A stretch of 24,007 nt of DNA from Oligoflexus sp. (GCA_041736305.1 JBGSTX010000085.1:1-24007), one strand, 5' to 3'; counted from the first letter of the stretch, positions 3,850-13,033 are shown. Notes: generated by a model from the letters alone, not told the origin. Numbers and translations: made by a program.

Positions 3850-4578
3850 TTAACCAATGCGCCCGCTCAGGTAAGAACGGACCAGTGTATTGTCTGAGTT
3901 CGCGGCAAGAAAGTGGAGCTTCCCGCGGTCCACGATGCGTGAACCATCAGGGTTCGGCCATAGTACAAGAGTCTCGCTGGCCAATCGCGCTGCCTGTGCA
4001 ATATTATGGGTGACGATGAGAATGGCTGTAGAGGCCGACAGATCGCGGAGACTAGCTTCGATCGCCTGCGTTGCCAGCGGATCGAGACTCGAGCAGGGCT
4101 CATCCAAGAGCAGCAGTTCGGGTTCCAGCGCCAAGACACGCGCCAAGCAGAGGCGCTGCTGCTGCCCTCCCGACAGAGTTGCGGCAGCTTCATGGAGACG
4201 ATCCTTGACCTCATCCCAAAGGCCAGCTTGCGTAAGTGCCTTCGCGACTTGCTCCTCTGGCTTTCTGAAGCCTCGCTCTCGCAGGGCAAGCGCGACATTT
4301 TCAAAGATGCTGAGAGGAAACGGCAGAGGCCGCTGAAAAACAATCCCTACGATGCGCTCAGGTCGCTTCCGATAGATACGACCGCTGACATGAGCCCCAG
4401 GCGGGAGTATATCGGCCAGAGCATAGAGCAGAGTGGACTTACCTGAACCTGAGGGCCCAAGCAAAGCGCTTATTCTGCCCCGAAAAAGCTCCATATTGAT
4501 CTCAGCTAAAACCGTTCTTTCACCATAGCGGAGACTCAGGTTTTCTATTGTGCTGAGAGCTTCTTGCTGTTTTTCCAT
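3850..4578 (-). CDS. pstB: PstB-like ABC transporter ATP-binding protein
   Basis: Walker A GPSGSGKST, VFQRPLPFPLSIFENV, GLWDEVKDRL, LSGGQQQRLC, Walker B LLLLDEPCSSLDP, VTHN. Confidence 0.9.
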   Translation of the reverse strand: MEKQQEALSTIENLSLRYGERTVLAEINMELFRGRISALLGPSGSGKSTLLYALADILPPGAHVSGRIYRKRPERIVGIVFQRPLPFPLSIFENVALALRERGFRKPEEQVAKALTQAGLWDEVKDRLHEAAATLSGGQQQRLCLARVLALEPELLLLDEPCSSLDPLATQAIEASLRDLSASTAILIVTHNIAQAARLASETLVLWPNPDGSRIVDRGKLHFLAANSDNTLVRSYLSGRIG

Positions 4579-5383
4579 GAGTGAGCCCTCGAATGATAAA
4601 CCTTGATAAAAAAGAAAAGGCAGCGGTTAGGATAAGAATCACAGCCGCCGCCCGATAAGCTTGAGCGTCAGCACCGCCAACATTAAGGCTGAGGTCAAAA
4701 ATATGAACCGACAAACTTCGTCCCGACTCAAAGACGCTTTGCGGCCATCGCAAGGAGTAGCCAGAAGTATAGAGAAGAGCGGCAGTCTCACCAATCGCTC
4801 GCGTCCAAGCCAAGATCAGGGCTGCAAGCAGCGCCGGACGAATCAGAGGCATATAAATCTTAAAGGTCGCCGTCCATTCGGAAAGACCGAGCGAACGAGC
4901 CGTTCGCCGCAGGTCTGGGTCCAAAGCTGCAAGGGCATCCTCGACCAGACGAACAAAAAGCGGCAAGATCATCAGACTCAGAGTAAGACTACCGCTCAGG
5001 ATTGAATACGAGAGGCCAAGGACGCGACCAAAGAAGGCGAAACCGAATAGACCGTAGACGATGGAAGGCGTTGCAGCCAAGAGGTCCAGGCAGCCTCGTA
5101 TCCAACGCGTCATCCAATCAGACGAAGTCTTGGGCTGCCGGGCCAGACCCACCGCCAGTGGAAGACCCAGTAGGCAGACAAAGGTCAGAGTCAAAGCGTT
5201 GATCAGCAAAGTCGAGTAGATGACGGGTCCCACTCCTCCAAGACGACCCATGCGCACCGGTTCTTCGAGCCAGAAGCCGAGACGGAGGGCCCCCGGCGCA
5301 TGCAAAAGAACTGGCGCAAGAACAGCCACCCCGATCGCAAAAACGTAGAAAAGTGCCAGGCCCGTGCTTAAGCGGAGTTTCAT
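4520..5383 (-). CDS. pstA: PstA-like ABC transporter permease
   Basis: LAATPSIVYGLFG, GSLTLSLMILP, RAIGETAALLYTSG. The ATG at 5383 overlaps the pstC stop (TAATG), so it is preferred over 5422. Confidence 0.88.
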   Translation of the reverse strand: MKLRLSTGLALFYVFAIGVAVLAPVLLHAPGALRLGFWLEEPVRMGRLGGVGPVIYSTLLINALTLTFVCLLGLPLAVGLARQPKTSSDWMTRWIRGCLDLLAATPSIVYGLFGFAFFGRVLGLSYSILSGSLTLSLMILPLFVRLVEDALAALDPDLRRTARSLGLSEWTATFKIYMPLIRPALLAALILAWTRAIGETAALLYTSGYSLRWPQSVFESGRSLSVHIFDLSLNVGGADAQAYRAAAVILILTAAFSFLSRFIIRGLTHGKTARSSQHNRKPESPLW

Positions 5384-6261
5384 TATGCGTTTTCCCGACC
5401 TGCGAGGAAGCGCAAAACGCAAACGAGCAACAATAGACAGAGCCCTAAAAAAAAGAGCGCGGAGCGATGCAGTCCCTGAGCATAGGACATCTCGAGAGCT
5501 ATCGTCGCGTTGAGGGTCCGAAAGGGTTCAAAAAGCCCTTTCGGCAGTTGAATGTTGTTTCCCGCGACGAGCAGAACGGCCAGAGTTTCACCAAAGGCAC
5601 GCCCCGCACCTAAGATAAGCGCACGCCGTAGAAACCTTCTCCTCTGGGGGAGGATGACCTTGCGGATCAGGCTCGGTGTGCTGATTCCTAGGCTTTTTCC
5701 AACCTCAAGCAGAGGGTCGGTATCGATCACGAGCATGGCATGAACGTTGATAATAAGGCTCGGCAAGAGCACAAAGCTAAGTACAAATGAGGCAACCAAA
5801 AGTCCGAAGGCTGGGGGAAAGTAAACGGCCAAGATTGGCAGTAGAAAACTGAGACCGAAGAGACCCACAACCACTGATGGAATAGCCGCCATCAACTGGA
5901 GACTACCCAAGAGCCAGACGCTGGTCCGCGGGGAAGAGAAGAATCCTAGATAGATGGCGCTGGCGCGAGCGATTGGCCAGGCCTGCAGGAGACTTAGCCC
6001 CACCACCAAAACGCTGCCCACCACCATTGCCATGATTCCAAAGCGGTTTTCACTTGGAAACCAGGCCAGCTGAAAAAGGCTTTGCGAGGCTTCAGGAGCT
6101 TTAAGGAAAACTAAGGCTTCCTTGCCGAGGAAGACAAAGATACAGAGAATGCCTCCGCAGGCGAGAAGCCGAGTCAGGTCGATCCAGAATTCAAAGATGC
6201 GGTCTCGCCAGTTTTGTCGCATCTTCCTCTCAGGCTGCCTTGACTCGCCTAGCTTCAACAC
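5383..6261 (-). CDS. pstC: PstC-like ABC transporter permease
   Basis: WFP..FGIMAMVVGS, AAIPSVVVGLFG, GRAFGETLAVLLVAGN, IALEMSYA.GLHRSALF. Start uncertain (6261, 6258 or 6222). Confidence 0.88.
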   Translation of the reverse strand: MLKLGESRQPERKMRQNWRDRIFEFWIDLTRLLACGGILCIFVFLGKEALVFLKAPEASQSLFQLAWFPSENRFGIMAMVVGSVLVVGLSLLQAWPIARASAIYLGFFSSPRTSVWLLGSLQLMAAIPSVVVGLFGLSFLLPILAVYFPPAFGLLVASFVLSFVLLPSLIINVHAMLVIDTDPLLEVGKSLGISTPSLIRKVILPQRRRFLRRALILGAGRAFGETLAVLLVAGNNIQLPKGLFEPFRTLNATIALEMSYAQGLHRSALFFLGLCLLLLVCVLRFLAGRENA

Positions 6262-6265
6262 TTCC

Positions 6266-7075
6266 TCACAAAGGAATATAGTTCAGACTCTTCACGAGTT
6301 TTTGGCCCTCAGGTGAGCTTGCGAACTGAATGAACCCTTCTGCTGCGGGCTTCGCTTTGCCGCATTGTACAAGGCTCAAAGGACGCACGAGGGTATAACT
6401 TCCTTTTAGTACGGCGTCCGTCGTGGGTATCGCTCCATCGAGAGCTACCGACTTCACCTGAGAGTTCCCCTGACTCGCTAGCTCAGCGCTACTGATAGCA
6501 ACATAGCCTATAGCGCCTGGATTCGAGGCGATCGTTTTGAGACCCTGCTCTTCGTCGCCAATGATCAGACTGGCTTTGACGTCGGAAGGCTTCAGCTTGA
6601 AATGCTGAAGGAAGAGCTCGAGAGCAGCGCGACCCTCGGCCTTGTTTACGACCACCACTTTCTGATCGGGCCCACCCAGTTCTTTCCAATTTTGAATTTC
6701 ACCTCGGAAGATGCGGACAACTTGCTCCCCGGTGAAACTACTCAGCGAGTTCGTTTTATTGAGCATAAAGGCGATCCCATCCCGCGCGATGGGTACAGCT
6801 CGCACATTCCCATCCTCAGGTTTTAACGGCCTCGAAATCATACCGAGGTCGTTGAGGCCATCCCGGCAGTCGCTGAGACCTTTGGATGAGCCACCGGTCT
6901 GCACATCGAGTTGAACGTTAGCGTTGTTCTTTTCGTAGGCTTTAGCGATTTCGCTCACCAGCGGAGCCAAAGTACTCGAACCACTCAGAGTCAGCTTCTG
7001 CAGGCTGGCAGCAGCGCTCGATCCAAGAGAACCCCATAGGATTAAGGAACCTGCAATATAGAGACTAATCTTCAT
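6266..7075 (-). CDS. pstS: PstS-like substrate-binding protein with a divergent ligand motif
   Basis: Signal peptide, GSSTLAPL, TGGSSKG, GMISR, IARDGIA, GAIGY, G.Y.L.RPL. The canonical RxxxSGT is replaced by KAEGRAA. Confidence 0.85.
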   Translation of the reverse strand: MKISLYIAGSLILWGSLGSSAAASLQKLTLSGSSTLAPLVSEIAKAYEKNNANVQLDVQTGGSSKGLSDCRDGLNDLGMISRPLKPEDGNVRAVPIARDGIAFMLNKTNSLSSFTGEQVVRIFRGEIQNWKELGGPDQKVVVVNKAEGRAALELFLQHFKLKPSDVKASLIIGDEEQGLKTIASNPGAIGYVAISSAELASQGNSQVKSVALDGAIPTTDAVLKGSYTLVRPLSLVQCGKAKPAAEGFIQFASSPEGQKLVKSLNYIPL

Positions 7076-7093
7076 CGGCTGTTGCTCGCTTTC

Positions 7094-8020
7094 TCAGCTC
7101 TTGCTGTTGTTCTGACTAGGGTCCGCGGTCTCGACGGGCAACTCTTTCAAAGCTGCGTATTCCTTCCAGGACCCTTCATAAAGGACCACATTTTTGTAGC
7201 CAGCGACATGGGTGAGGTAGAAGCGCAGCAAGCTGCCCTCGCGCGATGTACCGCAGTAAACGATGATTTCCTTGTCGGGGCTGATACCTTTATCGGTCAA
7301 AAGGCTCTGCACTTCTGAATAAGGCTTAAACTTATGGGTATTGTCTGAGGTCATGACCATGCGCCAAGGAAAGCTGACCGCTCCAGGGATGTGTCCTTTG
7401 CGAGGCCAAACGCTGTCCTCACCGAGATACTCATTTTTGGGCCGCGCATCGACTAAAACGACGTTCTTTTGGTCTTTGCGCTGCATCACCGTTTTCACAT
7501 CGGTGCCGATCGAGAACTTCGCCTTCTTTGGGAGAGTTCCGCGCGGAGTATTGGGATACTCTTGCGAAAGTTCGTAGCTGAGCTTGTAGGCAGGTAGACC
7601 ACCATCGATAATTTTAATGTCTTCAATTCCATACTTCTCAAGCACGTAGGCGACCATGCTGGCACTCAGAATCTCGTCACCGGTACCCCCTTCGGCATAA
7701 AGGATATGCTGACGGCCCCTGTCAACTCCGGCTCGCTCGAGCAGAGGGCGCGTAAGATCCTCGGGCAGATATTGAACTGGTACGCCCTGATCTGTGCCTC
7801 TCAAAGTGTCAAAATTTATGTGGTGCGCTGTAGGTAGGTGACCGCTGATATAGTCTTTGTAACCTCCGCGTGTATCAAGAAGCAGCGGTCTTTTTTTTGC
7901 ATCCGTCCGGGTAATCGATTCGTGCGCTTCAGACGGACTGATCAAACCAATGGCCGCCAAACTCGGCGATGCCATGAACATGAGGCCCAGGCTACAAGCC
8001 CATTTCAACTTTCCTGACAT
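7094..8020 (-). CDS. Exported tandem-domain rhodanese/sulfurtransferase
   Basis: Signal peptide (..SPSLA), YISGHLPTA, KGHIPGA, active-site loop YCGTSREG, C-terminal signature LYEGSWKEY; RBS GGAG. Confidence 0.92.
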   Translation of the reverse strand: MSGKLKWACSLGLMFMASPSLAAIGLISPSEAHESITRTDAKKRPLLLDTRGGYKDYISGHLPTAHHINFDTLRGTDQGVPVQYLPEDLTRPLLERAGVDRGRQHILYAEGGTGDEILSASMVAYVLEKYGIEDIKIIDGGLPAYKLSYELSQEYPNTPRGTLPKKAKFSIGTDVKTVMQRKDQKNVVLVDARPKNEYLGEDSVWPRKGHIPGAVSFPWRMVMTSDNTHKFKPYSEVQSLLTDKGISPDKEIIVYCGTSREGSLLRFYLTHVAGYKNVVLYEGSWKEYAALKELPVETADPSQNNSKS

Positions 8021-8180
8021 ACGAAGTCTCCATCTCGGAAGATTTTCTCTCTAGATCAGTGGGATCCTAGGCAGCTTCCGTTTGGCGAGCAAGGATTATT
8101 GTTTCCGCCGATTTGGCTCTCGACATATGCACGTCTTCTCGAGATTCGCGCTGCGGAACTACCTACTTTTCGAGATCAGG

Positions 8181-8234: not shown

Positions 8235-10004
8235 CTAGGGTGCTTTGCCACCTGGGAAATAATGAATAGGAGCGTCCGTGCCCAGTGGCCAACCTAAGAA
8301 GTACCAGGCGATGAGAAAGCCCGTCCAGATAACGAAGAATACCAGCGTGTAGGGCACCATCAGCGAAATTAGAGTTCCGAGTCCGGCCTGAGGTCGGTAC
8401 TTATGAAGCACCGCGAGGATAATCAGCAGATAGCTGTTGAGAGGCGTGATGATATTCACCACGGAGTCGCCGATCCGATAGGCGGCAAGTGTGAGCTCAG
8501 GGCTGATGCCCACCATCATGAACATGGGAATAAAAATCGGCGCTAGCACTCCAAACTTGCTCAGCATCCCGCTCATCGCAAAATCGCCGACAATGACTAC
8601 GAGAATGAAAAGAACCAGTAGCAGCGGCACGGGCAAGTTCACCTGGACGAGGAGCGTACCTCCCGCATAAGCCAGCATGCGGTCCAATCCTGTGTACTTC
8701 AGTGACTCAACAAACTGCCCCAGAAAAAACATGATCGCTAACACAGGAACGATCGCGCGAATTCCGTGATAAAGGCCATCAGCAAAGTCTTTCTGCGACT
8801 TAATCTGCCGTGAGACAAAGCCATAGACGAGACCTGGAAAAAAGAAGAGGCAGAAGATCATAGGCACGATCACCTGCGACCAACGATCCCCAGCACGCTC
8901 GACCGCACGGAGGGTACCGCTGAAGCCAGGTTGCAGAGCGGCAGGAGGACCTTCGAGCAGGAGCTGACCCGAGGCGAGAGTCGGCTGTCCGCTGCCGGCG
9001 AGAGGCATGCCGGGGATTAAAATGAGAGAGAGAAAAATCCCGACGATAGCTAGCATGGTGAGCAGTGAATAAGCCAGAGCGCGCTTTTCCGCACCCTCGA
9101 GACTCATATTGCTCAGGACCTCTGAAGCTGGTCCTGCGTTCTGATTTTCCACGCGGCGAAGATGCGGTTCAATGATGCGATCCGTCACAAACCAGCCGCC
9201 GAGCATGACGACCAGGGCCGAGCCCGCCTTGAAATAGAGGTTATGGGTAATGTTCACGGTGTAGCTCGGATCGAGGATGTGCGCGGCGCTGCTAGCAAAG
9301 CCTGCCAGAGCGCCATCACCTCCTGTTGGAAAAAAGCCGCCACCAAAACCCCCGGATACCCCAGCGAAAGCCGCCGCCAGACCAGCTACGGGGTGACGCC
9401 CCATCGCTAGGTAGAGGGCTGCGGCGAGCGGCGGAAGAATGATATATCCCGCATCGCTCGCCACCGATGAGTTGGCCCCCACCAGCACAATCACGGGCGT
9501 CAGTAATCGCCGGGGCGTTGCAAAAGCTAGAAAGCGCATGAGGGCGCTGAAGAAACCAAAGCGTTCCGCAAAGCCAATGCCGAGCATCGCCACAAAAATG
9601 AGTCCCAGAGCCGGGCTGCGGGTAAAATTGCCGAGCATCGACGAAAAGAACCAGTAGATACCCTCGGTGGTGAAGAGGCTCCTAGCTCCTATCGGCGCGC
9701 CCTGGGGTTCCAGAGCGCGGACCAGTTCGCCCTCTGCATTCCGCGCTGGCTCGCGGACCGGTTGGCCGCTGGCATCGAGGGCAACCTGACCATTCGCGTC
9801 GAGCTTTTCTACGGTGGGGATAACGAGCTTTTGCGGCTGGACCTGCCAGCCTGCCGAAGAACCCCAGGCTGAAAGGACAAAGACCAGGGCGGTCAGAATG
9901 GTGAAAAGGATGACAGGCTCGGGAAGCATGTTCCCCGCCCGCTCGATTGCATCTAAGAATCGTTCCGATCGCGAAACCTTTGGCTTCGCTGCTGCCTCTG
10001 TCAT
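8235..10004 (-). CDS. AbgT family transporter
   Basis: FLDAIERAGNMLPEPVILF, ASDAGYIILPPL, GRHPVAGLAAAFAGVSGGF, AAYRIGDSVVNIITPLNSY. The ATG at 10004 has the RBS GAGGAAGG, so the ORF-track extension to 10256 is not supported. Confidence 0.93.
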   Translation of the reverse strand: MTEAAAKPKVSRSERFLDAIERAGNMLPEPVILFTILTALVFVLSAWGSSAGWQVQPQKLVIPTVEKLDANGQVALDASGQPVREPARNAEGELVRALEPQGAPIGARSLFTTEGIYWFFSSMLGNFTRSPALGLIFVAMLGIGFAERFGFFSALMRFLAFATPRRLLTPVIVLVGANSSVASDAGYIILPPLAAALYLAMGRHPVAGLAAAFAGVSGGFGGGFFPTGGDGALAGFASSAAHILDPSYTVNITHNLYFKAGSALVVMLGGWFVTDRIIEPHLRRVENQNAGPASEVLSNMSLEGAEKRALAYSLLTMLAIVGIFLSLILIPGMPLAGSGQPTLASGQLLLEGPPAALQPGFSGTLRAVERAGDRWSQVIVPMIFCLFFFPGLVYGFVSRQIKSQKDFADGLYHGIRAIVPVLAIMFFLGQFVESLKYTGLDRMLAYAGGTLLVQVNLPVPLLLVLFILVVIVGDFAMSGMLSKFGVLAPIFIPMFMMVGISPELTLAAYRIGDSVVNIITPLNSYLLIILAVLHKYRPQAGLGTLISLMVPYTLVFFVIWTGFLIAWYFLGWPLGTDAPIHYFPGGKAP

Positions 10005-10291
10005 GCTGGGGTCCTTCCTCGTGCATGGCGCGCGTTTTTTGGCAAATGGCGAGAGCCCATAAAGATCATGTACCGATGTGCAGTGAGCCCATGGGCCCTT
10101 ACATCTCCTTAGCCGTCTCCGCTGAAGCTCGTCAATAGTCGGATAGCGACAGGGCTCCATTCTGACGATCGCTGAGACCGAAAGTCCGCTAGTCGCCTGG
10201 TTTCCATGATCCAAGCCTTTAGCGATTTGCCATTGCATGCAACAGCCCCGCTTCATTAGATTGCTCCCAAGCTATTGCTGAGGAGAATTTC

Positions 10292-12286
10292 ATGATGCGA
10301 AACTATGTTCGAGGTACCCTGCTCGCCAGCTGGCTCCTCGCGACCTACTCGGGGCTTGCACGCAGCGAAGTCCCTGTCAGCCGACGAGAAGTCGGCAAAC
10401 TTGTGATGGAAAACATTCCAGAGATCCCGTCAGCCCTTCAAGATAGGCTGGGACAGTACGAAAATATTCGTTCTGCTTCCTTCCAAGGTTGGCTGCCAGG
10501 ATCAAGTGGGCTTCTCATCAGCACCCGTTTCGGGGAGGCGGCCCAACTGCATACCGTCAAGTCTCCTCTGCATGCAAGGCGCCAAATAACCTTCTACCCA
10601 GAGCCCATCGGTGCGGCGACAGTGAGCCCGAGCGGCGATCGGATCGCCTTTCTCAAAGACCAAGGTGGTGACGAGAACTCTCAGATCTACCTTACCGACG
10701 CTACAGCCAAGCAATTTACTCTGATAACGGACGGGAAATCGCGTCACGAGTTTCCGCTCTGGGACAAAGCGGGGCGCTCGCTGGCCTATTCGAGCAGCAA
10801 GCGCAATGGTCGCGACACCGATGTTTATATTCACCGTCTGGGCCAGAGCCAGTCTCAAAAGAAACCCGAAGGTGAGATTCTTATTCAGGAAGGCGGCTAC
10901 TGGCGGCCTGTCGACTTCAGTCCTGACGGTTCGCAGCTGCTCGTTTCCAAGGTGGTGTCGAGCACTGAGAATTACCTCTATCTTTACGATTTCAAGGCCA
11001 AGAAACTCGATCAGCTCTTCCCAGGAAAACAGCTGGCTTTTGGGGACGCGAGCTTCTCTAAGGATGGCCGCCAGATTTTTTTGACGATGGATGATCCTGG
11101 CGAATTCAAGGTCCTCTATTCTTACCAGCCGCAGAACAAGAGCCTAACTCCTATCTCGGCCAAGATTCCCTGGGATGTGGAGAGTCTCGAGGTATCTCTG
11201 GACGGCAAAAAGCTACTTTTCAAAACCAACGAAGACGGGATCCATCGGCTTTACGTCGCCGAGCTTCCGAGCTTCCGCTACGAGGAAATCAAGGGCCTTC
11301 CAGGAAGCCAGATTGGCAAACACGGCTTTCACCCCGAAGATAGCCAGCGGCTGGCCCTCTCAGTTTCCAGCTCAAGCCTGCCCGGTGATGTTTTTGTGTA
11401 TGATCTGAAAAAAAAGAAGTTTGAACCCTGGACCGACAGTGAAACGGCAGGACTCGATCGAAAGAACTTCGTAGAACCTCGCTTGATTCACTACCCGACT
11501 TTCGACCAGGTGGCTGGCGAAGCGCGCAAAATTCCGGCCTTTCTCTTCAAGCCGCGCGACGCTCGCGGCAAAGTCCCGGTGGTAATCAATATTCACGGTG
11601 GACCTGAGGCCCAATATCGTCCCGGATTCTCGGCTTTTTTCCAGTATCTAGCCAGCGAAAGCGGAATTGCGGTAATAGCGCCTAACGTCCGTGGGAGTTC
11701 GGGCTATGGAAAAAGCTTCATCACGCTGGATAACGGCAAAAAACGCGAGGACTCCGTAAAGGATATTGGAGCCCTTCTCGACTGGATCGCGCAACAAGAG
11801 GATCTCGATAGCCAGAGAGTGGCTGTCATGGGTGGCTCCTACGGGGGCTACATGACCCTTGCTAGCCTGGTGCATTATGGTCCGCGCTTGGTAGGGGGCA
11901 TCGACAGTGTCGGCATCAGTCACTTCATAAGCTTTTTGACCAACACCAAGTCTTACCGTCAGGACTTGCGCCGAGTAGAATACGGCGACGAGCGCGATCC
12001 GGATATGCGGGCCTTTCTCGAGCAGATTTCGCCCCTAACCCAAGTGAACAAGATTCAAAAGCCGCTCTTTGTCGTGCAGGGCCTGAACGATCCCCGCGTG
12101 CCTGCATCCGAAGCTGAGCAGATTGTAAAAGCAGTGCGCGCCAGTGGCAACGAGGCCTGGTATTTGCTAGCGCAGGACGAAGGGCACGGCTTCCGCAAGA
12201 AAGCCAATCAAGCCGTATCTCTGCAAACCAACGTCATGTTCCTCGAAAAGATTCTCTTTCCAGCTAAAACCAGTAGTTTGCCCTAA
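10292..12286 (+). CDS. Exported S9 family peptidase (prolyl oligopeptidase/acylaminoacyl peptidase)
   Basis: Signal peptide, beta-propeller repeats (SPSG, FSPDG, FSKDG), IHGGPE, nucleophile GGSYGG, NDPRV, DEGHGF; RBS GAGGAG. Confidence 0.95.
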   Translation: MMRNYVRGTLLASWLLATYSGLARSEVPVSRREVGKLVMENIPEIPSALQDRLGQYENIRSASFQGWLPGSSGLLISTRFGEAAQLHTVKSPLHARRQITFYPEPIGAATVSPSGDRIAFLKDQGGDENSQIYLTDATAKQFTLITDGKSRHEFPLWDKAGRSLAYSSSKRNGRDTDVYIHRLGQSQSQKKPEGEILIQEGGYWRPVDFSPDGSQLLVSKVVSSTENYLYLYDFKAKKLDQLFPGKQLAFGDASFSKDGRQIFLTMDDPGEFKVLYSYQPQNKSLTPISAKIPWDVESLEVSLDGKKLLFKTNEDGIHRLYVAELPSFRYEEIKGLPGSQIGKHGFHPEDSQRLALSVSSSSLPGDVFVYDLKKKKFEPWTDSETAGLDRKNFVEPRLIHYPTFDQVAGEARKIPAFLFKPRDARGKVPVVINIHGGPEAQYRPGFSAFFQYLASESGIAVIAPNVRGSSGYGKSFITLDNGKKREDSVKDIGALLDWIAQQEDLDSQRVAVMGGSYGGYMTLASLVHYGPRLVGGIDSVGISHFISFLTNTKSYRQDLRRVEYGDERDPDMRAFLEQISPLTQVNKIQKPLFVVQGLNDPRVPASEAEQIVKAVRASGNEAWYLLAQDEGHGFRKKANQAVSLQTNVMFLEKILFPAKTSSLP

Positions 12287-12349: not shown

Positions 12350-12562
12350 AAGGTCGAGAGGATTGGATGGTCGGCCAGCAGAAGGCTTTAAGCCCTTCTA
12401 TGTTCGATGATGCTGCTGAGATCTACCTAGATGCGAGGCAAACGGTGCCACGCTGAGAACGAATCCGTTTCTATACAAGTGAGTCTGCATACGGGTAGGT
12501 TGACTATCTGGACGAGCCTCCTATACTTGCCTCGAATTTATAGATTCATCGTGAGGATAACT

Positions 12563-13033
12563 ATGCAACGCATCATAAGCTCCAGCATCTTAGCTCTGCT
12601 AGCAGGAACTCTTCTCCACGCAAGCAGCGCCGCAGCATGCTCCTGTGCAGTCTCTACCAAGAAACAGGACTATCTAAATGCTGACTATGTCTTCATCGGC
12701 AAGAACCTCAGAACCAAGACAGTTAATGTCGGAGATGATTTTCCAAAAGTAGAGTTTGTGGTAGAGGTCGAGAAATCGTTCAAGGGCAAGCTTCCCCGCT
12801 ACGTCGCCGTGCGTACGGAAAGTAATTCAGCCATGTGCGGCGTATCATTGGCAAAGAATCAGACCTACCTGCTGTATGCAGACAAGGGGACCCGCAAGTA
12901 CATACAGACTAGCCTTTGTACGCGCACCCAAGCTATCGCAGGCGACTCGGCTGCGGAAGATTTAGCTTGGCTCGAGCGCCTGCCTGCTTCACTTTCCGAG
13001 CCCGAAGAGACATTGCCTCTGCCTTTCCAGTGA
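12563..13033 (+). CDS. Exported TIMP-like (NTR-fold) protein
   Basis: RBS GAGGA before ATG 12563; signal peptide ending AAA then CSC; ADYVFIGK, AMCGVSL...TYLLYA, TSLCTRT. Confidence 0.8.
   Translation: MQRIISSSILALLAGTLLHASSAAACSCAVSTKKQDYLNADYVFIGKNLRTKTVNVGDDFPKVEFVVEVEKSFKGKLPRYVAVRTESNSAMCGVSLAKNQTYLLYADKGTRKYIQTSLCTRTQAIAGDSAAEDLAWLERLPASLSEPEETLPLPFQ

Follow-up and report, generated by a model that had tools for sequence, protein, structure and literature searches.

Why would an exported sulfurtransferase head an operon that otherwise resembles a phosphate importer? The question is raised by five closely packed minus-strand genes of Oligoflexus sp. (GCA_041736305.1 JBGSTX010000085.1), located at positions 3850 to 8020 of a 24,007-nucleotide (nt) stretch of DNA, hereafter the window. 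According to the open reading frame (ORF) calls, the operon encodes a rhodanese followed by PstS-, PstC-, PstA- and PstB-like components of an ATP-binding cassette (ABC) importer. This order, with gaps of 18 and 4 nt and then overlaps, had already been described in an earlier interpretation of the same DNA (the sequence-only reading), and the ORF calls agree with it. We tentatively propose that the operon is a member of a widespread, undescribed module composed of a rhodanese with the loop CGTSREG, a variant importer of the phosphate family and, in most relatives, an ArsR-family regulator with a Cys-Cys motif. With the same reserve, we suppose that the module is linked to arsenic, joining the import of a phosphate-like oxyanion to a periplasmic arsenic-sulfur enzyme whose substrate and direction of sulfur transfer we infer.

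The rhodanese gene (7094..8020, minus strand; 308 residues; two PF00581 stretches, 102 bits) is followed after 18 nt by the gene of the variant PstS-like periplasmic binding protein (6266..7075, minus; 269 residues with a signal-like leader; PBP_like_2, 145.8 bits) and, 4 nt further, by that of the PstC-like permease (5383..6261, minus; 292 residues, with an alternative ATG start at 6222). The PstA-like permease gene (4520..5422, minus) encodes 300 residues from the TTG at 5422 or 287 residues from the ATG at 5383, so that its overlap with the PstC-like gene is 40 nt for the former start and 1 nt (TAATG) for the latter. It overlaps in turn by 59 nt with the gene of the PstB-like ABC ATPase (3850..4578, minus; 242 residues; ABC_tran, 101.7 bits). 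The Pfam matches of the operon are thus two rhodanese stretches, PBP_like_2, two BPD_transp_1 domains and ABC_tran, and a binding protein, two different permeases and one ATPase stand in a single operon, as in a PstSCAB-type system. A Pst model is the best NCBIfam match for each of the four transporter parts, and all four fall below the curated cut-offs: 173.7 bits against 206.6 for the PstS-like protein (TIGR02136), 153 against 196 for PstC (TIGR02138), 163.6 against 193 for PstA (TIGR00974) and 228 against 343 for PstB (TIGR00972).

The N-terminus of the rhodanese, MSGKLKWACSLGLMFMASPSLAA, resembles a Sec signal peptide on inspection, and the rhodanese and the PstS-like protein alike begin with a few basic residues, followed by a hydrophobic segment and a site of small residues. 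A hydrophobic leader precedes the conserved mature start in 20 of 20 aligned rhodanese relatives. The signal peptide that the sequence-only reading had noticed is therefore borne out, and we predict from leader inspection and family alignment that the whole family is exported. The active-site loop VYCGTSREGS holds the catalytic Cys256, the sole cysteine of the mature protein, and the block VYCGTSREGSLLRF (V-Y-C-G-T-S-R-E-G-S-L-L-R-F) is invariant across the same 20 relatives. The catalytic cysteine is found in the C-terminal domain only, the equivalent position of the N-terminal domain reading Y-A-E-G-G (catalytically dead). Both domains align to E. coli SseA (1urh) and to the Thermus rhodanese (1uar) with no insertion or deletion in the loop, whose length is six residues (the sulfur-transfer type) rather than seven (the phosphatase and arsenate-reductase type). 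Mercaptopyruvate sulfurtransferases (MST) carry the loop C-G-S-G-V-T and thiosulfate sulfurtransferases (TST) the loop C-R-K-G-V-T. The loop C-G-T-S-R-E is of neither type, and the protein scores 104.4 bits against the SseA equivalog NF008557, for which the cut-off is 250.

A family search in a collection of 5.8 billion proteins yielded 1796 proteins at E <= 1e-10 among 4600 candidates, and the best 120 clusters, the query itself excluded, are 61-69% identical to the window rhodanese. The named clusters among these 120 belong to Planctomycetota and Verrucomicrobiota, with one Ilumatobacteraceae label, and the nearest relative (68% identity) is from a metagenome-assembled genome labelled Bdellovibrio sp. 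(locus L008). Identities of 57-68% across phyla suggest that the CGTSREG rhodaneses constitute a tight family of their own. Since the family is found in only one of 131 genomes of the window's phylum (E <= 1e-40), namely the present one, the window rhodanese was probably acquired by transfer.

To what are these rhodaneses linked? We surveyed loci of ~13 kb around the best 80 of 212 confirmed rhodanese relatives, 57-68% identical, and scored neighbours by tblastn with the window proteins and with representatives of recurrent neighbours. The loop called atypical by the sequence-only reading as CGTSRE is present as CGTSREG in all 80 loci, and a phosphate-family transporter lies within 2.5 kb of the rhodanese in 69 of them. 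The linkage that this reading had proposed to survey is conserved, but the partner is mostly of another kind: a PiT/PHO4-family gene (PF01384, 182 bits) stands within 2.5 kb in 60 of the 80 loci, on the same strand in 59, whereas a PstS-like gene does so in only nine. PiT is downstream of the rhodanese in 23 loci (in 22 of these on the same strand, 17-277 nt away) and upstream in 37, mostly at 740-880 nt, with an exported protein of ~230 residues between. The window gene order recurs in five loci (L008, L018, L024, L026 and L060), whose PstS proteins are 43-49% identical to that of the window, and a more distant PstS type occurs in four (L043, L047, L053 and L074). PiT and PstS-like genes were found together in none of the 80 loci, and 11 have neither. 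In seven of these 11 the flank on one side is shorter than 800 nt (one of the seven, L035, has PiT 2.6 kb away), and L051 has PstA/PstB-like genes 1.1-1.9 kb upstream of the rhodanese; L050, L052 and L057 have full flanks with no PiT- or Pst-type transporter.

Because a single rhodanese family is paired, in 69 of 80 loci, with one or the other of two transporter architectures that are unrelated, and never with both, the neighbourhoods support a functional coupling between rhodanese and transporter, in line with the enzyme-transporter coupling first suggested for the window operon.

The intervening protein of ~230 residues (e.g. L041:2686-3387) is encoded in 43 of the 80 loci, in the PiT-rhodanese interval of Verrucomicrobiota loci. 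It matched no Pfam or NCBIfam family and only unnamed clusters of the ESM Atlas, with one weak lead to YjbH (14% of one cluster's members), and it may be an outer-membrane component of the module.

Is the binding protein itself altered? The best PDB match of the window PstS-like protein is Clostridium perfringens PBP-1 (4gd5/4q8r, E 2e-35), whose phosphate ligands, as given in excerpts of PMC5381212, are Ser11, Thr12, Ser13, Ser41, Ser59, Arg125, Ser129, Gly130 and Thr131. In a HMMER alignment the first five are kept in kind in the window protein, and five of the nine in total; the other four are replaced (Arg125 by Lys, Ser129 by Arg, Gly130 and Thr131 by Ala). The third ligand motif thus reads N-K-A-E-G-R-A-A, a variant K-x3-G-R in place of R-x3-S-G-T. 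This variant is present in nine of nine rhodanese-linked PstS-like proteins that reach the motif (the window and L018, L024, L026, L060, L043, L047, L053 and L074), the L008 protein being cut by a contig end ahead of the motif and hence absent from both this count and the tree below. The paralogous PstS of contig C242 of the same genome likewise carries K-x3-G-R, while S-G-T is kept in the canonical PstS of contig C375, in a lone copy on contig C356 and in an unrelated PstS of L040.

A maximum likelihood tree of 32 PstS proteins separates two variant clades. Clade I, with the motif N-K-A-E-G-R-[AS]-[AT], has 21 rows including the window protein (support 99/99), and clade II, with N-K-E-P-G-R-G-T, has seven (100/100). 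Since rhodanese-linked PstS proteins occur in both clades, their pairing with the rhodanese appears to have arisen, or to have been kept, several times. The branch of the window protein is long (1.59 against a median of 0.59) and its sister is unresolved in the tree. Variant PstS genes occur in 19 of 131 genomes of the phylum, where the variant Pst operons, the window operon apart, are without a rhodanese. The window operon may have been transferred as a unit, or the rhodanese may have been added to a resident variant operon, and the tree fits either course.

A corresponding change is seen in the other architecture. TmPiT binds phosphate and sodium through Asp22 and Asp258, which belong to two G-x-N-D motifs, and through two S-T-T triplets, according to the consulted portion of PMC7413737. 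In the rhodanese-linked PiT-like proteins the Asp22 position is occupied by Ala or Ser in every ORF that is in frame through the first repeat. The motif is G-A-N-A-N-F-K, with the variants G-A-N-A-N-S-K, G-A-N-A-N-C-K and G-G-N-A-N-F-K and one G-A-N-S-N-F-K. The second G-x-N-D is kept in all but one of the PiT-like proteins, and both P-x-S-T-T-H motifs are kept. The three ordinary PiT genes found next to a PhoU_div gene in Prosthecobacter loci have G-x-N-D. In these Prosthecobacter-type neighbourhoods (L059:9469-11224, L061 and L072), PhoU_div (DUF47) and the ordinary PiT lie ~3 kb from the variant PiT-rhodanese pair, so that both kinds of PiT coexist, and a regulator with helix-turn-helix and PBP_like domains is also near.

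The phosphate site in the membrane domain of the window importer, by contrast, is largely retained. Excerpts of PMC12976172 place the membrane-domain phosphate site of E. coli PstSCAB at PstA Arg220 and PstC Arg237. Aligned with E. coli PstC (9k3x_B), the window PstC keeps the equivalents of Arg237 and Glu241 (G-R-A-F-G-E-T), and aligned with E. coli PstA (9k3x_A), the window PstA keeps Arg220 and Ser133, with Ser130 changed to Ala. Since the membrane-domain arginines are kept while the PstS and PiT ligands are changed, the cargo is probably still a phosphate-like oxyanion, chosen by a changed first filter.

The genome itself, an assembly of 5.02 Mb in 392 contigs that is 92.7% complete, offers a reference for an ordinary system. 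It has four PstS-family genes: the canonical one on C375, that of the window, the C242 paralog and the lone C356 copy. The C375 PstS passes the TIGR02136 cut-off with 304 bits and is followed by pstC, pstA and pstB; the operon is preceded by the C-terminal end of a PhoR-like kinase, and aspS comes after its pstB. The separate canonical pst-phoU locus that had been suggested as a check thus exists as phoR-pstSCAB, without phoU. Indeed, the PhoU domain (PF01895) was found nowhere in the 92.7% complete genome, and neither an E. coli-type pho box nor direct repeats of 11-nt period were found upstream of the C375, C242 or window operons, the search having used E. coli-type repeats whereas the box of this lineage may differ. 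The absence of phoU and of a pho box, which the sequence-only reading had rightly observed for the window operon, is uninformative as an argument because the canonical phoR-pstSCAB has neither. Its view of the transporter as non-standard fares better, given the changes at phosphate-binding positions of the PstS-like and PiT-like proteins and the canonical phoR-pstSCAB elsewhere in the genome.

Of the two remaining PstS-family genes, the one on C242 belongs to a second variant pstSCAB (C242:7397-10763, L005) of the clade I type that has no rhodanese. Its PstS is 50% identical to that of the window and has the motif N-K-A-E-G-R-S-T, and a gene for a DUF2092 periplasmic protein lies ~600 nt upstream of the operon. 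The C356 gene (C356:7485-8300, L007) encodes a lone PBP_like_2 protein of the PstS family with S-G-T kept and has no permease genes; it is located directly downstream of a gene for a 929-residue protein with a cytochrome c motif.

It might be argued that the window operon is an ordinary, redundant phosphate transporter and that the adjoining rhodanese serves a separate purpose in the periplasm, of a redox or sulfur kind. Every Pst component does find its best match in a Pst model, the first five PstS ligands and the membrane-domain arginines are retained, and, as excerpts of PMC5381212 indicate, the ligand sets of short-form PstS proteins are in any case not that of E. coli PstS. We nevertheless consider this explanation very unlikely. 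All four components score below the cut-offs, whereas the C375 PstS exceeds its own; a single motif change defines two well-supported clades; and a pairing in 69 of 80 loci with two architectures, never both, is hard to explain without coupling.

If the cargo is not ordinary phosphate nutrition, what does the context suggest? An ArsR-family gene is present in 45 of the 80 rhodanese loci, and in 32 of them it lies no more than 2.5 kb away. Common to these regulators is the C-terminal motif L-x-L-G-C-C-x-x-x-F, and they usually have a further cysteine, the position of which depends on the lineage. In the window's phylum, a Cys-Cys-type ArsR stands beside six of 16 enlarged variant Pst loci, and the 10 regulators of this type found in the phylum are distributed as six beside variant PstS, one beside an ArsM-like gene and three beside unknown small genes. 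ArsR proteins that sense As(III) typically have three-Cys sites whose positions are not conserved, and Cys pairs are also present in the persulfide sensors BigR and SqrR. A PDB search with the Cys-Cys regulator returned generic ArsR/SmtB matches only (<=41.6 bits), which single out none of the As(III)-, metal- and persulfide-sensing subtypes, and the NCBIfam model of BigR matches weakly (37 bits, cut-off 155).

In Verrucomicrobiaceae loci, a gene for a CobW/G3E-family GTPase of 390-400 residues with a G-C-F-C-C motif is divergent from the Cys-Cys-type ArsR, a few kb upstream of PiT and the rhodanese (L058:1686-2891, L036, L037, L056, L061, L062, L064-L067, L076 and L084).

Bona fide ars genes adjoin the module in four of the 80 loci. 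In L084 the rhodanese is followed by an ArsR with a C-V-C motif, DUF6428, a thioredoxin-type ArsC and a MIP channel; L034 has the same set plus Porin_O_P; L070 has MIP-like, DUF6428 and ArsC genes 2-4 kb upstream; and in L016 ArsD (118.7 bits, over the cut-off), ArsA and ArsC lie convergent directly after PiT. ArsC occurs about once per ~5.6-Mb genome (49 matches in 50 of the 80 genomes, 41 of them with at least one), so that the chance of an ArsC in a 13-kb locus is ~0.2%, and ~0.2 would be expected in 80 loci against the four seen, which are not all independent lineages and differ in arrangement.

Genes of the ArsM type form a second strand of this context. Upstream of its regulator-rhodanese-PstS string, L008 encodes an ArsM-like methyltransferase (144.9 bits), which is truncated by the contig end, a TIGR04283-type 'arsenosugar' glycosyltransferase (138 bits, below the cut-off), a radical SAM enzyme, and MauE-like and DUF547 proteins. 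In L119 the variant PstSCAB belongs to a single-strand string that also has a VTT-domain/disulfide-reductase fusion, GT2, DUF2064, DUF3047 and an ArsM-like gene, and in L126 the variant PstSCAB is followed by an ArsM-like gene; an ArsM-like gene thus stands in a string with variant Pst in two of the 16 phylum loci. At the level of genomes, an ArsM-like gene is present in 17 of 19 genomes with variant PstS against 19 of 112 others (Fisher p = 1e-9), an association that is overstated inasmuch as the test treats related genomes as independent. ArsM-like here means a match to NF008823 at E <= 1e-25, which exceeds the NCBIfam cut-off in one genome only.

The single ArsM-like methyltransferase of the window's genome (C326:1943-4174, L128; 350 residues, 183 bits, below the cut-off) is encoded near a gene for a 153-residue protein of the glyoxalase/dioxygenase family and one for a desulfoferrodoxin-domain protein, with no ars genes adjacent.

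Because Cys-motif ArsR regulators, ars operons and ArsM-type genes are found near the relatives, the context favours an arsenic-related role, be it with thioarsenate, arsenic oxyanions or phosphate uptake under arsenic, over thiosulfate or thiophosphate nutrition. Of the oxyanions listed in the sequence-only reading, the arsenical one has therefore gained, and plain thiosulfate or thiophosphate nutrition has become less favoured. A precedent comes from arsenic islands, which carry a second pst operon, and whose pstS1 is regulated by ArsR in Agrobacterium tumefaciens; for these operons more specific phosphate uptake, or arsenate uptake, in the presence of arsenic has been proposed (PMC3834237, in the sections consulted).

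How might such a module work? Arsenite is thiophilic like cyanide and sulfite, and monothioarsenate that loses its sulfane sulfur gives arsenite, as thiosulfate gives sulfite. Rhodanese is reportedly able to sulfurate trivalent arsenicals. On the tentatively favoured, arsenic-linked reading, the importer would bring a phosphate-like oxyanion, most likely phosphate, across the inner membrane, its pocket being re-tuned so that arsenic oxyanions compete less. In the periplasm, the single-Cys rhodanese would move sulfane sulfur to or from an arsenic species, converting arsenite to monothioarsenate or the reverse. Either direction would change the arsenic species that meet the transporter and the aquaglyceroporins, and in this way the rhodanese would condition what reaches the transporter. 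The module would be controlled by the ArsR-family repressor in relatives, and presumably by some regulation in this genome as well.

Several observations weigh against this arsenic-linked reading. Profile scans of the window reveal no ArsR-type gene and no ars gene nearby, and a Cys-Cys-type regulator was not found in this genome. Among the 80 rhodanese loci, 75 are without arsenic genes and five have them, and of five isolates of the Planctomycetota-Verrucomicrobiota-Chlamydiota (PVC) group in which the rhodanese-PiT module occurs, none has an ArsM-like gene. In the window's phylum, the products of such genes, which score below the cut-off in all but one genome, may methylate something else, and the genome counts take related genomes as independent. 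The regulator has no close solved relative, and its cysteines could sense persulfide or sulfite in the manner of BigR. The loop has the six-residue length of sulfurtransferases, not the seven residues of arsenate reductases and phosphatases.

In an alternative, the system takes up sulfur oxyanions: the periplasmic rhodanese would cleave thiosulfate to sulfane sulfur and sulfite, the variant Pst or PiT would import sulfite or thiosulfate, and the regulator would sense sulfite or persulfide. The enzyme belongs to the thiosulfate/mercaptopyruvate sulfurtransferase superfamily and has a normal six-residue loop with an Arg. The lost PstS ligands (Ser, Gly and Thr, replaced by Arg, Ala and Ala/Thr) and the lost PiT Asp would fit an anion with fewer oxygens or protons. 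Among NCBIfam models, the PiT-like protein matches best that of CysP, a sulfate permease of Bacillus (78 bits, cut-off 400), and the BigR model that the regulator weakly matches at 37 bits is described as sulfite-sensing by NCBIfam. PspE, a periplasmic rhodanese that uses thiosulfate, provides a precedent in the excerpted text of PMC10215317. On the other hand, no sulfur-assimilation or sulfur-oxidation genes are among the recurrent neighbours of the rhodanese loci, the partners are always of the phosphate family and never of CysTWA, SulP or YeeE type, and the phosphate-site arginines of the membrane domain are kept. Sulfur oxyanion uptake would also leave the enrichment of ars genes and the co-occurrence with ArsM unaccounted for, and we regard it as unlikely.

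The ArsM-bearing loci invite another idea, that arsenic oxyanions (arsenate, monothioarsenate or methylarsonate) are imported deliberately, for subsequent reduction, methylation or assembly into organoarsenicals, with the rhodanese preparing the species. In L119 an ArsM-like gene and accessory genes of the arsenosugar type run in the same direction as the variant Pst operon, in L126 an ArsM-like gene does so, and the ArsM-like, TIGR04283-type, radical SAM and DUF547 genes lie upstream in L008; in addition, a sulfur atom or a methyl group could lie against the Ala residues of the pocket. Yet arsenic import under a repressor that is released by As(III) would amplify poisoning, ArsM-like genes are missing from all five PVC isolates with the module, and arsenic-processing genes are not near 75 of the 80 loci. 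Deliberate import therefore seems rather improbable to us.

A further possibility, selenite uptake for the synthesis of selenoproteins or selenouridine with the rhodanese as a selenium carrier, was suggested by selD in the window's genome (260 bits), where a rhodanese-domain gene lies upstream of selD, by a weak match of the window rhodanese (37.7 bits, cut-off 200) to NCBIfam ExtH, an exported rhodanese of selenite/tellurite reduction, and by the presence of selD in 11 of 19 variant-PstS genomes against 52 of 131 overall. We rejected it, as an exceedingly improbable explanation, because, at E <= 1e-20, selD was not found in any of five isolates whose genomes have the module in its rhodanese-PiT form (Prosthecobacter fluviatilis, Anatilimnocola sp. 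NA78, Zavarzinella formosa, Brevifollis gellanilyticus and Verrucomicrobium sp. BvORR106).

The selD gene of this genome (C75:35-3488, L129) encodes SelD fused to an N-terminal pyridine nucleotide-disulfide oxidoreductase domain (788 residues) and is preceded by a gene for a 367-residue rhodanese-domain protein, possibly SelU. Judged by the length of the open frame, the long form of SelD occurs in ~21 of the 52 selD-positive genomes of the phylum, and in genomes G073 and G065 the long selD lies within ~0.5 kb of an ArsM-like gene.

To return to the arsenic-linked module, one may go further and imagine an undescribed extracytoplasmic arsenic-sulfur pathway. In it the rhodanese would either be dedicated to sulfur transfer from thiosulfate to arsenite or act as a thioarsenate desulfurase. 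The transporters would be the first carriers specialised in thio- or arsenic oxyanions, or else the first phosphate carriers made arsenic-proof by a rewritten pocket, the regulators would represent a new As(III)-sensing Cys-Cys subtype of ArsR, and the pathway would feed ArsM-type synthesis of organoarsenicals in some lineages. We think this extended version quite unlikely as a whole.

In the 214-nt gap upstream of the rhodanese gene there is a weak sigma-70-like promoter match (8095..8123, minus strand; TCGAGA-17-AATAAT, 9/12), which is a consensus match only, in a region with seven such sites against 3.2 +/- 1.7 in shuffles. Further upstream, and co-oriented with the operon, comes the gene of an AbgT-family transporter (8235-10256, minus; 673 residues), in which ~95 residues precede a Pfam match that starts at residue 99; its start may have been called too early, or the protein may have an N-terminal extension. 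Downstream and convergent is the gene of a DUF4423/TIGR02147 protein. The rest of the window consists of peptidases and unknown genes, and the profile scan of the window proteins found nothing related to phosphate, sulfur or arsenic. One of them, a 200-residue protein (12431-13033, plus strand) encoded directly after an S9 prolyl-oligopeptidase-type gene (10292-12286), has a TIMP domain (PF00965, 40.9 bits), which is unusual for a bacterium.

Two questions of arsenic biogeochemistry are open, namely how bacteria discriminate between phosphate and arsenate and how they deal with thioarsenates at all. The present analysis provides three testable objects for them: a PstS clade with four rewritten pocket positions, a PiT clade that lacks one of the two signature aspartates, and an exported rhodanese whose sequence has stayed 57-68% identical in organisms as far apart as Bdellovibrio-like bacteria, Planctomycetota and Verrucomicrobiota. 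If the arsenic-linked reading is true, bacteria that abound in fresh water and soil would have a periplasmic step and dedicated carriers added to their ars repertoire; if sulfur uptake is the function, a new route for thiosulfate or sulfite would have been made of phosphate-transporter parts. In either case, the automatic labels 'phosphate ABC transporter' and 'sulfurtransferase' mask a distinct system.

How does this system compare with those already known? Among the closest are the pst1 operons in the arsenic islands of A. tumefaciens 5A and H. arsenicoxydans, as presented in the consulted sections of PMC3834237. There too an extra Pst importer exists beside the housekeeping one, and the relatives of the window operon are likewise linked to ars genes and ArsR-family regulators. 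Here, in contrast, the PstS is of the short family and has its third ligand motif rewritten, the first gene of the operon is that of an exported rhodanese, the window is devoid of aio, ars and phoU genes, and the same enzyme is mostly accompanied by PiT in the relatives. E. coli YnjE, to which the sequence-only reading had likened the rhodanese, holds as an analogy, since with YnjBCD it offers another exported rhodanese gene next to a binding-protein-dependent ABC importer of unknown cargo. It does not hold as a close relationship: YnjE (2wlr/3ipo) is a distant match (E 7.5e-11) with three rhodanese domains in chains of 416-423 residues, whereas the window enzyme has two domains in 308 residues, and its loop is unlike the CGTGWR that the sequence-only reading quoted for YnjE. 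To our knowledge, the YnjB-type binding protein is not of the PstS family.

At the level of sequence, the window rhodanese has the same two-domain fold as SseA (1urh), the Thermus rhodanese (1uar) and the mycobacterial CysA/SseC-type TST (3aax, 3hwi). With these tandem sulfurtransferases it shares a catalytic Cys in a six-residue loop of the C-terminal domain, with Arg and Glu in or next to the loop (C-R-I-x-E-R type); they are cytoplasmic and have other loop sequences, while the window enzyme is predicted to be exported. That a rhodanese fold can act on arsenate through a catalytic Cys is documented for Acr2p, LmACR2 and Cdc25 in excerpts of PMC10135228, according to which the loop of these proteins, H-C-x5-R, is seven residues long and they rely on the glutathione and glutaredoxin of the cytoplasm. 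The window enzyme differs from this type in having Y-C-G-T-S-R-E-G-S, with no His before the Cys and with the Arg at +4, and in its predicted extracytoplasmic location. In Geobacter, ExtH/ExtI are said to comprise an exported rhodanese-like protein and a porin-like outer-membrane protein of selenite/tellurite reduction. The exported ~230-residue protein near many relatives of the window enzyme (43 of 80 loci) recalls this arrangement, but there are no cytochromes here and the partner is an importer. As for the binding protein, short-form PstS proteins (4gd5, 4q8r, 1twy and 4h1x; E 2e-35 to 1e-27) are the best solved relatives of the window PstS-like protein and share its S-G-S-S/T-T, G-S-S-x-G and S-R motifs, PBP-1 differing from it at four of the nine phosphate ligands reported in the excerpts of PMC5381212.

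In the full-text literature, a scope that leaves out most subscription journals and supplements, we found no description of the rhodanese-transporter pairing or of the CGTSRE motif, and the consulted portions of PMC11097638, PMC9751042, PMC6620896, 10.1101/2022.10.17.512643 and PMC9881974 contain nothing on this pairing. The superfamilies of the parts are already known, and a second phosphate transporter with a link to arsenic has been proposed in the literature. What is new in comparison is the family of exported rhodaneses with CGTSREG, the near-obligate association of this family with one or the other of two re-tuned carriers of the phosphate family, the motif changes in these carriers and the Cys-Cys subtype of regulator.

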